A stretch of DNA of 64,000 nucleotides from a phage. Location of the stretch: the NCBI GenBank assembly GCA_026110335.1, contig GCA_026110335.1_3055.1; one strand, given 5' to 3'. The notes under the pieces are model-generated. The model had not been told where the DNA came from. It worked only from the letters and a program-made list of their open reading frames with translations, and did no database searches. The position numbers and the translations under genes are program-made. This document shows positions 10,979 to 11,930 of this stretch, piece by piece; positions within the stretch are counted from its first letter, which is position 1; every line of letters starts with the position of its first letter.

Positions 10979-11326
10979 TCAATACGGTTTAGCATCAAAT
11001 TTTCTTTCAATTTCAGGCGTGAAATATAATTCTTTACCGCGTTTGGAAAAGCGACCAATAATATGATAATTATTCTCATCAAACGTGATATTACCAATAT
11101 CCATAGCTTTCAACCAAATATCGATATTTCTATCCAGCTTTATGTCAAAATTCCAATACGGAGAACTATTACCGAAAATACTGCAAGCGGATTCAGTGAA
11201 ACAACTACTATAAATCTTGTCTTTAGGAACTACTAATTGATAGACGCCTTTAATAAACTGAGGACCTTGCCATTTTGGCTGTTTCGCGTCTTTTTCTAAT
11301 AGAATAGGGTAATAATTAAAATTCAT
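10979..11326 (-). CDS. hypothetical protein (about 115 aa) inserted between frd and td
   Basis: ORF with GGTGGA RBS before ATG at 11326 (a longer 123-aa form starts at 11350); in T4 frd and td are adjacent. Confidence 0.5.
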
Positions 11327-11930
11327 ATTTTCCACCCCGCGGTATTTCATTTTTATATACTGATTCCGTAAGAGTTGTTACTTCATCTATTTTATACCAA
11401 TGTGTTTCAACCATTTCACGCTTGCTTATATCATCAAGAAAACTTGCATCTAATTGAACCGTTGAATTAACACGATGCCTTTTAACGATGCGAGAAACAA
11501 CTACTTCATCTGCATAAGGTAATGCAGCATATAGCAGAGCAGGCCCGCCAATTACACTTACTTTGGAATTCTGACCAAGCATAGTCTCAAATGGTGCATT
11601 AGGGCTTGACACTTGAATTTCGCCGCCAGAAATGTAAGTTATGTACTGTTCCCATGTAATATAGAAATGTGCTAAATCGCCATCTTTAGTTACAGGATAA
11701 TCACGCGCAAGGTCACACACTACAATATGGCTACGACCAGGAAGTAATGCAGGCAATGACTGGAACGTTTTAGCACCCATAATCATAATTGTACCTTCAG
11801 TACGAGCTTTAAAATTCTGAAGGTCCTTTTTAACTCGTCCCCATGGTAAACCATCACCTAAACCGAATGCTAATTCATTAAAGCCTTCGACTGTTTTAGT
11901 TGGAGAATAAGCGAATACCAATTTAATCAT
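11316..11930 (-). CDS. frd: dihydrofolate reductase
   Basis: 204 aa; N-terminus MIKLVF...[24 protein letters not shown] matches recalled T4 Frd; C-terminal 11 residues differ. Confidence 0.9.

Follow-up and report, generated by a model that had tools for sequence, protein, structure and literature searches.

A conserved accessory gene between frd and td of T4-like phages that T4 lacks

Between the dihydrofolate reductase (frd) and thymidylate synthase (td) genes of the phage DNA analysed here lies a small gene, referred to below as gene A, which is an accessory gene that T4 lacks. The DNA, called the window throughout, is a stretch of 64,000 nt from assembly GCA_026110335.1 (contig GCA_026110335.1_3055.1). 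Gene A is a genuine coding gene under strong purifying selection and the majority allele of Tequatrovirus, being carried by T2, T6 and the RB phages, while the empty junction of T4 is the rare state. It is already known in so far as it is catalogued as PHROG 1928 and is the common allele in T2, T6 and their relatives; no paper mentioning it was found in the literature searched, including by locus tags and peptide strings. Taken as a whole, the explanation that we consider moderately likely is that of a selectively maintained early/middle accessory gene that would have been acquired horizontally and would code for a non-catalytic binding protein.

Results and discussion

Layout of the locus and start of gene A

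The genes of the region all lie on the minus strand and follow each other in the direction of transcription as frd, gene A, td, two small ORFs and a 754-aa nrdA-like ORF, with the two small ORFs 3' of td occupying the positions of T4 nrdA.2 and nrdA.1. In the list of open reading frames, the minus-strand frame containing gene A spans 10979-11350 (123 aa at its longest) and is flanked by td (10073-10933) and frd (11316-11930).

11316-11930, minus strand: frd, dihydrofolate reductase, 204 aa (Pfam DHFR_1, E 3.8e-19), overlapping gene A by 11 nt
11327-11350, minus strand: the 8 codons added in the 123-aa form of gene A, with an ATG at 11350, open in this variant only
10979-11326, minus strand: gene A, 115 aa, PHROG 1928, AlphaFold2 model with a pLDDT of 91.2
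10934-10978, minus strand: spacer between gene A and td, 45 nt, AT-rich (15.6% GC), holding the td ribosome-binding site
10073-10933, minus strand: td, thymidylate synthase, 286 aa, uninterrupted (Pfam Thymidylat_synt, E 4.9e-93)

The original prediction had placed an ORF of 115-123 aa with its own ribosome-binding site between frd and td. This ORF is real, and its conserved start is the ATG at 11326, which gives the 115-aa protein and is preceded by a GGTGG Shine-Dalgarno sequence 5 nt upstream. Translation probably does not begin at the ATG at 11350: the 123-aa form is open in the variant of the window alone, because AugustSocin and most other relatives in the alignment have AAA TAA after the upstream ATG. 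In records with the same allele as the window, gene A is annotated as a 348-nt gene.

Coding signal and selection

A search with gene A against the profile of PHROG 1928, a family of T4-like phages catalogued as "unknown function", gave an E-value of 1.1e-35, with residues 12-119 (numbered in the 123-aa form) aligned to positions 2-125 of the 126 of the profile. The known members of this family include the hypothetical protein of T2/T6, AR1 ar1_242, RB32ORF229c, CC31p239 and S16 gp155 and gp154; gene A resembles them in its full-length HMM match, its size and its position between frd and td, and nothing substantive sets it apart. Its GC content (32.5%) and GC3 (28%) are typical of the window, where an HMM search found no paralog of gene A elsewhere.

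Pairwise comparison of gene A among the window, T2 and AugustSocin gave 12 + 4 + 15 = 31 synonymous differences and 0 non-synonymous ones. In the same comparisons of frd and td, non-synonymous changes do accumulate. Measured against the 63%-identical homologue of metagenome locus L015, the dN/dS of gene A was 0.11. The reading of the frame as a spurious ORF was rejected. A lack of conservation in relatives, which had been named at the outset as an observation that would speak against the gene, is not what was found, as gene A is conserved at 100% in T2/T6.

Distribution and junction states in Tequatrovirus

The gene A protein is 100% identical in T2, T6 and RB5, and tblastn located it at 90% identity or more in 363 phage records. 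The junction census was based on roughly 515-555 Tequatrovirus-like records. A T4-type empty frd/td junction was found in 32 of these, about half of them T4 itself or near-identical strains, and 31 of the 32 share an identical 45-mer. Around 130 further records match the T4 junction on the frd side only; in UTI-E4, the one of them that was inspected, an unrelated 68-aa gene (PHROG 9550) lies between frd and td, which suggests that the ~130 records hold a third junction allele with this gene.

The original prediction had stated that frd and td abut in T4, and this was confirmed: the end of frd (145109) and the start of td (145112) overlap at ATGA with nothing in between, and reference T4 accordingly has no such ORF at this position. 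The proposal of an accessory gene was likewise borne out. Gene A is not a novelty of this particular phage, with ~363 records carrying it, T2 and T6 included, vs 32 of the T4 type.

Several further observations were made on records of this region. In the T2 record AY310907 the 413-bp frd-td gap (L006 3505-3917) is left unannotated, though it encodes gene A at 100% identity. Several records label gene A "dihydrofolate reductase", and two BASEL records label it "putative homing endonuclease" (in AugustSocin at L002 3276-3623). The td gene of the window has no group I intron, as in T2; that of T4 is split in two, with I-TevI inside. The group I td intron is present in at least 28 of the 32 records with a T4-type empty junction and, because many phages with allele A (T6, PST, ECML-134) carry it too, the intron and empty-junction polymorphisms are not tightly coupled.

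The Td protein of AugustSocin has a strongly diverged mosaic patch at residues ~237-270 relative to the window and T2 (td at 10073-10933 in the window, L002 2370-3230 in AugustSocin). The AugustSocin and window proteins are identical at 245 of 286 positions and nearly identical outside the patch. Between frd and a 302-aa ORF at the gene 32 position (13571-14479), where T4 has the single frd.3, the window holds two small and clearly paralogous minus-strand ORFs (12487-12753 and 13198-13446) flanking a 126-aa ORF (12773-13153). The gene just upstream of nrdA, at the position of T4 nrdA.1, carries Pfam DUF4326 in L008, L010 and L015, and the window ORF at that position lies at 9509-9835 on the minus strand.

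The extended Frd of the window

The Frd of the window is 204 aa long and corresponds to the T4-type protein of 193 aa down to its last residue (...ESVYK; 98% identity overall), followed by 11 additional residues. The difference lies in a short run of A.

11350-11354, minus strand: run of five A, against three in T4 and, by alignment, in most carriers of gene A

A +2 slip (AAAAA instead of AAA) puts the frd TGA out of frame, so that Frd is extended by 11 residues. At least 21 other records, among them BECP11, Ec_O157kw, RB3, RB5-7, RB9, RB10, RB14 and the slur phages, have the extended allele, and in each of them a 45-mer across the slip falls within annotated frd. Because it is shared by this many records, and because most phages carrying gene A keep a Frd of the normal 193-aa length, the extended form is a natural minor allele, neither a sequencing error nor a direct result of insertion. 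The original prediction had read the divergent C-terminus as a gene end replaced by the insertion; the T4-type tail is kept instead, and the 11 residues were added by an independent +2 slip. This minor allele, with its 11-nt overlap of frd and gene A, is also what sets the window apart from most other carriers of PHROG 1928.

The gene A family and its cassette in other Tevenvirinae

A search of 1.84 billion representative proteins with a PHROG 1928-family profile returned only 22 clusters (50% identity), all of 95-116 aa save two weak repeat matches. Orthologues of gene A occupy the frd-td locus of at least five other genera, and the PHROG 1928 profile also recognises orthologues from other genera. 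Several other Tevenvirinae genera have homologues of 28-46% identity immediately 3' of frd, with start and stop codons that overlap or abut those of their neighbours, and family matches were also found in other genera, such as Winklervirus. The arrangements were as follows.

frd-A-td: Jiaodavirus (Klebsiella phage JY1)
frd-A-B-td: Gelderlandvirus (S16)
frd-A-B-td: Kanagawavirus (Kosakonia phage 305)
frd-A-B-td: metagenome loci L008 and L010
frd-A-B-C-td: Enterobacter phage CIP9 and metagenome locus L015

The B gene of S16 and Kosakonia 305 matches PHROG 1928 as well and is a tandem paralog of A. At L008 and L010, which have the same two-ORF layout, the B copies were compared by pairwise identity only. 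Judged on the sequences, the A-B duplication is old, because A and B of the same genome are only 22-30% identical. The A/B layout was located at L004 2498-3159, L005 2498-3176, L008 3501-4158 and L010 3474-4137.

The C gene of these Kanagawavirus-like phages (CIP9 and L015) shares 69-81% identity with the 68-aa gene found in the third allele of Tequatrovirus and, because of this resemblance, the two non-empty Tequatrovirus alleles are different pieces of one cassette. Such conservation is far above that of the adjacent Frd (~48%) and suggests either a second horizontal transfer or very strong constraint. Copies of the 68-aa gene/C, which belongs to PHROG 9550, lie at L007 3099-3305 (UTI-E4), L015 3670-3879 and L017 1578-1784. 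One member of the gene A family (P0024, L012 1248-1577) is not located between frd and td: it lies upstream of a gene of the RlaP family (PF10127), and the same contig codes for a RegB-like protein.

The 3' end of gene A in the window may hold a trace of paralog B.

10963-10995, minus strand: possible vestige of the start of paralog B, overlapping the 3' end of gene A; phages that retain B have MLNLIKIDEQ or MIRLIDVD at its start

Such a vestige is possible at best, and the likeness says little because the overlap with gene A constrains its first five codons. Local alignment of the spacer (10934-10978) with the B and C genes of L015 and L007 gave a match to the td start only.

Junction fossils and the origin of allele A

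Alignment of the window with T4 and AugustSocin delimits a segment of ~417 bp that is absent from T4, bounded on the left by ...TATAAATGAAA(T)AA and on the right by TAAATGAAACAA, the real td start. The original prediction had proposed a search for flanking short repeats, and two copies of a 9-bp direct repeat, TAAATGAAA, do bracket this segment. The features of the two boundaries are listed below.

11345-11352, minus strand: left copy of the flanking repeat, AAATGAAA, at the putative relic td start region
11342-11350, minus strand: putative relic td start region, ATGAAATAC; compare ATGAAACAA at the real td start (T4 alignment, Mosigvirus/Gaprivervirus junction table)
11316-11336, minus strand: putative relic of a donor-type Frd tail, GGTGGAAAATATGAATTTTAA, doubling as the gene A Shine-Dalgarno sequence; compare GGTGAAAAACGTGAATTTTAA in L016
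10928-10936, minus strand: right copy of the repeat, TAAATGAAA, at the functional td start

An old horizontal acquisition of gene A into an ancestral abutting frd/td junction appears likely. Insertion is preferred over deletion because of the abutting junctions of Mosigvirus and Gaprivervirus, the chimeric left junction of allele A and the outlying identities to L015 and L016. Mosigvirus MM02 and Gaprivervirus CJ20 have abutting frd and td genes, a Frd ending in ...VYK* and the overlap TATAAATGAAA, as in T4; their Frd is 60-64% identical to that of the window, vs 45-49% for the genera carrying gene A.

The left junction of allele A is made up of GTATAT (the VY codons), the T-even overlap with the relic td start (AAATGAAATAA), about 5-8 unmatched bases and GG(C/T)GGAAAATATGAATTTT. 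The last of these elements is homologous to GGTGAAAA(A/G)CG(-/A)TGAATTTT of L016/L015, which there directly follows GTATAT and serves both as the coding sequence of the Frd tail (...VYGEKREF* in L016) and as the ribosome-binding site of gene A. Gene A is 63-66% identical to its homologues in L015/L016, with the adjacent Frd at only 48-49%, whereas in nearly all other pairs the identity of gene A is at or below that of Frd (overall co-variation: Mantel r 0.71, p 0.001). The junctions of allele A are also loose, with gaps of 20 nt and 45 nt, and the genes of the native cassettes overlap or are 1 nt apart.

The same repeats permit the opposite reading, in which gene A would be ancestral in Tequatrovirus, inherited vertically from a Tevenvirinae ancestor, and the T4 junction would have arisen by deletion between the 9-bp copies, recurring or spreading in Mosigvirus and Gaprivervirus. 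In T4, it is well established that deletions arise between short direct repeats. The T4 junction is the exact product expected of recombination between the two copies, and 31 of the 32 T4-type 45-mers are identical, as from a single recent event; the orthologues that at least five other genera have at this locus and the way in which gene A identities track those of Frd and Td also point to vertical descent. Under this reading, however, an inserted 16-nt stretch with the exact sequence of the T-even frd/td overlap would have to separate the VY codons from the former Frd tail, an insertion that it leaves unexplained, and three independent deletions or a transfer between genera would be required as well. 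It does not account for a gene A far closer to L015/L016 than the adjacent Frd is, and Frd ends in ...VYK* in all three T-even genera, whereas the genera with a native gene A have longer tails that abut or overlap it. We consider deletion unlikely, if worth keeping in view.

Horizontal acquisition has difficulties of its own. A T4-type junction could also be obtained from allele A by deletion between the TAAATGAAA copies, and recurrent deletion at the same repeats would yield identical junctions in three genera. No Tequatrovirus intermediate with A-B or A-B-C was found, and the nearest sampled donor is only 63-66% identical in gene A.

According to the acquisition model that we prefer, the T-even clade (Tequatrovirus, Mosigvirus and Gaprivervirus) would ancestrally have had frd and td overlapping at TATAAATGAAA, and the Tequatrovirus ancestor would have gained gene A from a Kanagawavirus-like donor in one recombination event. 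The left breakpoint would have been illegitimate and placed a few bases within the recipient td start, leaving the relic ATGAAA(T)AA followed by the relic of the donor Frd tail and Shine-Dalgarno sequence; the right breakpoint would lie at or near the conserved 5' end of td. The two repeat copies would then be the td start of the recipient, now a relic, and the functional td start. Genes B and C of the cassette would have been lost or never transferred, and the gene A allele would have spread by homologous recombination to become the majority state (T2, T6 and RB phages), with T4 keeping the empty site.

The +2 slip in the A-run gives the 204-aa Frd, with its stop overlapping gene A by 11 nt. 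The window Frd ends in ...GGKYEF* at a TAA homologous to the stop of ...GEKREF* in L016, and the slip would fuse Frd in frame to the relic of the donor tail, which fits the insertion picture neatly. The word insertion, as used in the original prediction, thus holds in part: the segment looks inserted relative to a T4-type junction, the left overlap TATAAATGAAA being kept as a relic before a foreign remnant of Frd tail and Shine-Dalgarno sequence, but it is a common old allele and not an insertion of this phage's own.

Expression and the nature of the accessory gene

No promoter was predicted upstream of gene A and no terminator flanking it, and the gene is probably expressed from the frd-td operon message. 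The only promoter-like site is a sigma-70-like match (TTGATT-18-TATTAT) in the spacer, downstream of gene A and facing td, in a region where such matches are no more numerous than in shuffled sequence. The record of phage Lutter annotates a promoter at the same place, and we take the match as a lead only. An Rfam scan of 9500-13500 gave one chance match, below threshold.

Gene A is like the variable accessory genes found in plastic regions of T4-like genomes, and may by analogy be compared with "morons", in being non-essential, variably present and horizontally exchanged. It is unlike them in that it forms no autonomous promoter-gene-terminator unit and lies inside the frd-td operon, coming from a cassette native to the same locus. 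The suggestion of a moron-type insertion was therefore not upheld: no promoter/terminator pair brackets the gene, its GC and GC3 are ordinary, and it belongs to a cassette of one to three genes of this very locus.

The polymorphism of the junction also invites comparison with free-standing homing endonuclease genes, which in T-even phages are of the GIY-YIG (seg) and HNH (mob) types. Like seg and mob, gene A is present or absent at a site between conserved genes and was probably gained by recombination from another phage. Its presence is sporadic, as theirs is, with 363 records holding gene A, ~130 an alternative gene and 32 nothing. A homing endonuclease spreading by cleavage of the empty frd/td junction would account for this pattern and for the high population frequency of gene A, and it is the label given in the BASEL records AugustSocin and TadeuszReichstein.

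The protein itself is unlike those of seg and mob. No GIY-YIG, HNH, LAGLIDADG, PD-(D/E)XK or other nuclease domain was detected in the 33 family members, nor any by NCBIfam, and no Asp, Glu or His is invariant. At 115 aa and a single domain, it reaches at most about half their usual size. Non-synonymous changes account for 0 of the 31 differences, an extreme degree of purifying selection, and in other genera the gene is stably arranged, with overlapping or abutting neighbours and tandem paralogs. We regard a homing endonuclease as extremely improbable, and it was rejected as a candidate since motifs, size, selection pattern and genomic behaviour give it no support.

Predicted structure and possible role of the protein

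The AlphaFold2 model of the gene A protein, built from a 33-sequence alignment, reached a pLDDT of 91.2 and a pTM of 0.84; with 4 sequences only, the model was poor (pLDDT 61). The predicted elements are strands at residues 6-12, 27-34 and 62-64, a helix at 68-76 and strands at 80-82, 86-96 and 99-104. The protein would thereby fold into one compact domain, rich in beta strands and with a single helix, whose strands follow an OB-fold-like order. Residues Q16, W19, G27, G91, K95 and G97 are invariant in the family and Y29, N79, F93 and F102 nearly so, and the family alignment shows no conserved Asp, Glu, His, Cys or Ser.

Searches for relatives of known function were carried out at the levels of sequence and structure. 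Pfam, NCBIfam and PADLOC gave no family match to the protein, with scattered chance Pfam matches only among the 33 members, and searches of PDB sequences with the single protein and with the family profile returned no matches. No significant neighbour of the model was found among solved structures. Its weak matches were mostly to OB folds, and its resemblance to OB-fold domains (SSB, RPA, S1, HIN, Stn1/Ten1) is confined to the strand order of the model and to these weak matches. Similarity in fold to the solved anti-defence sponges Tad1, Tad2 and Acb2 was not found, and a BFVD structure search matched only uncharacterised proteins of T4-like phages.

Because conserved acidic, His, Cys and Ser residues are absent, binding is a better fit than catalysis. 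We tentatively propose, from the model and with low confidence, that the protein is a non-catalytic binding module, possibly OB-like, whose partner would be a nucleic acid, a nucleotide or a protein. The family pI ranges from 6.8 to 9.4, whereas a simple nucleic-acid binder would be uniformly basic, and it points clearly to no particular ligand.

A more specific role would be that of a dedicated partner of DHFR and/or thymidylate synthase, either as an adaptor in the dNTP complex or as a regulator of the frd-td message. The family accompanies frd and td in nearly all genomes examined, mostly with overlapping or abutting start and stop codons, and gene A is very strongly conserved; the OB-like strand order of the model, with conserved aromatic and basic residues in presumed loops, would also suit such a partner. 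Yet the same pathway operates in T4, Mosigvirus and Gaprivervirus, which have no gene A, and DHFR and TS therefore do not need it to function. T4-like phages share much of their gene order anyway, so that linkage is a poor guide, and the family member of L012 adjoins unrelated genes. A dedicated partner seems to us quite improbable.

A broader proposal, speculative and in our view unlikely, is that PHROG 1928 would be a new small-fold binding factor, directed against a defence or a factor of the host, or else binding nucleotides or nucleic acids in a way that is coupled to thymidylate synthesis, and that the frd-td junction would be a hotspot at which T4-like genera exchange a three-gene cassette at gene-boundary microhomologies. 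If PHROG 1928 were such a binding factor, it could account for some of the phenotypic differences between T2/T6 and T4, and would have gone unstudied because T4 is without it.

Conclusions

For annotation, we recommend the 115-aa start for gene A and removal of the "homing endonuclease" label, and the 204-aa Frd should be treated as a natural frameshift allele. The fossils at the junction offer a clean small example of accessory-gene movement between T4-like genera. Gene A is present in about 70% of sequenced T4-group genomes and is under purifying selection tighter than that on its enzyme neighbours, and it is without a name, a Pfam family or a structural relative. It has been overlooked because knowledge of these phages centres on T4, which lacks it, and it is a reasonable candidate for functional work.
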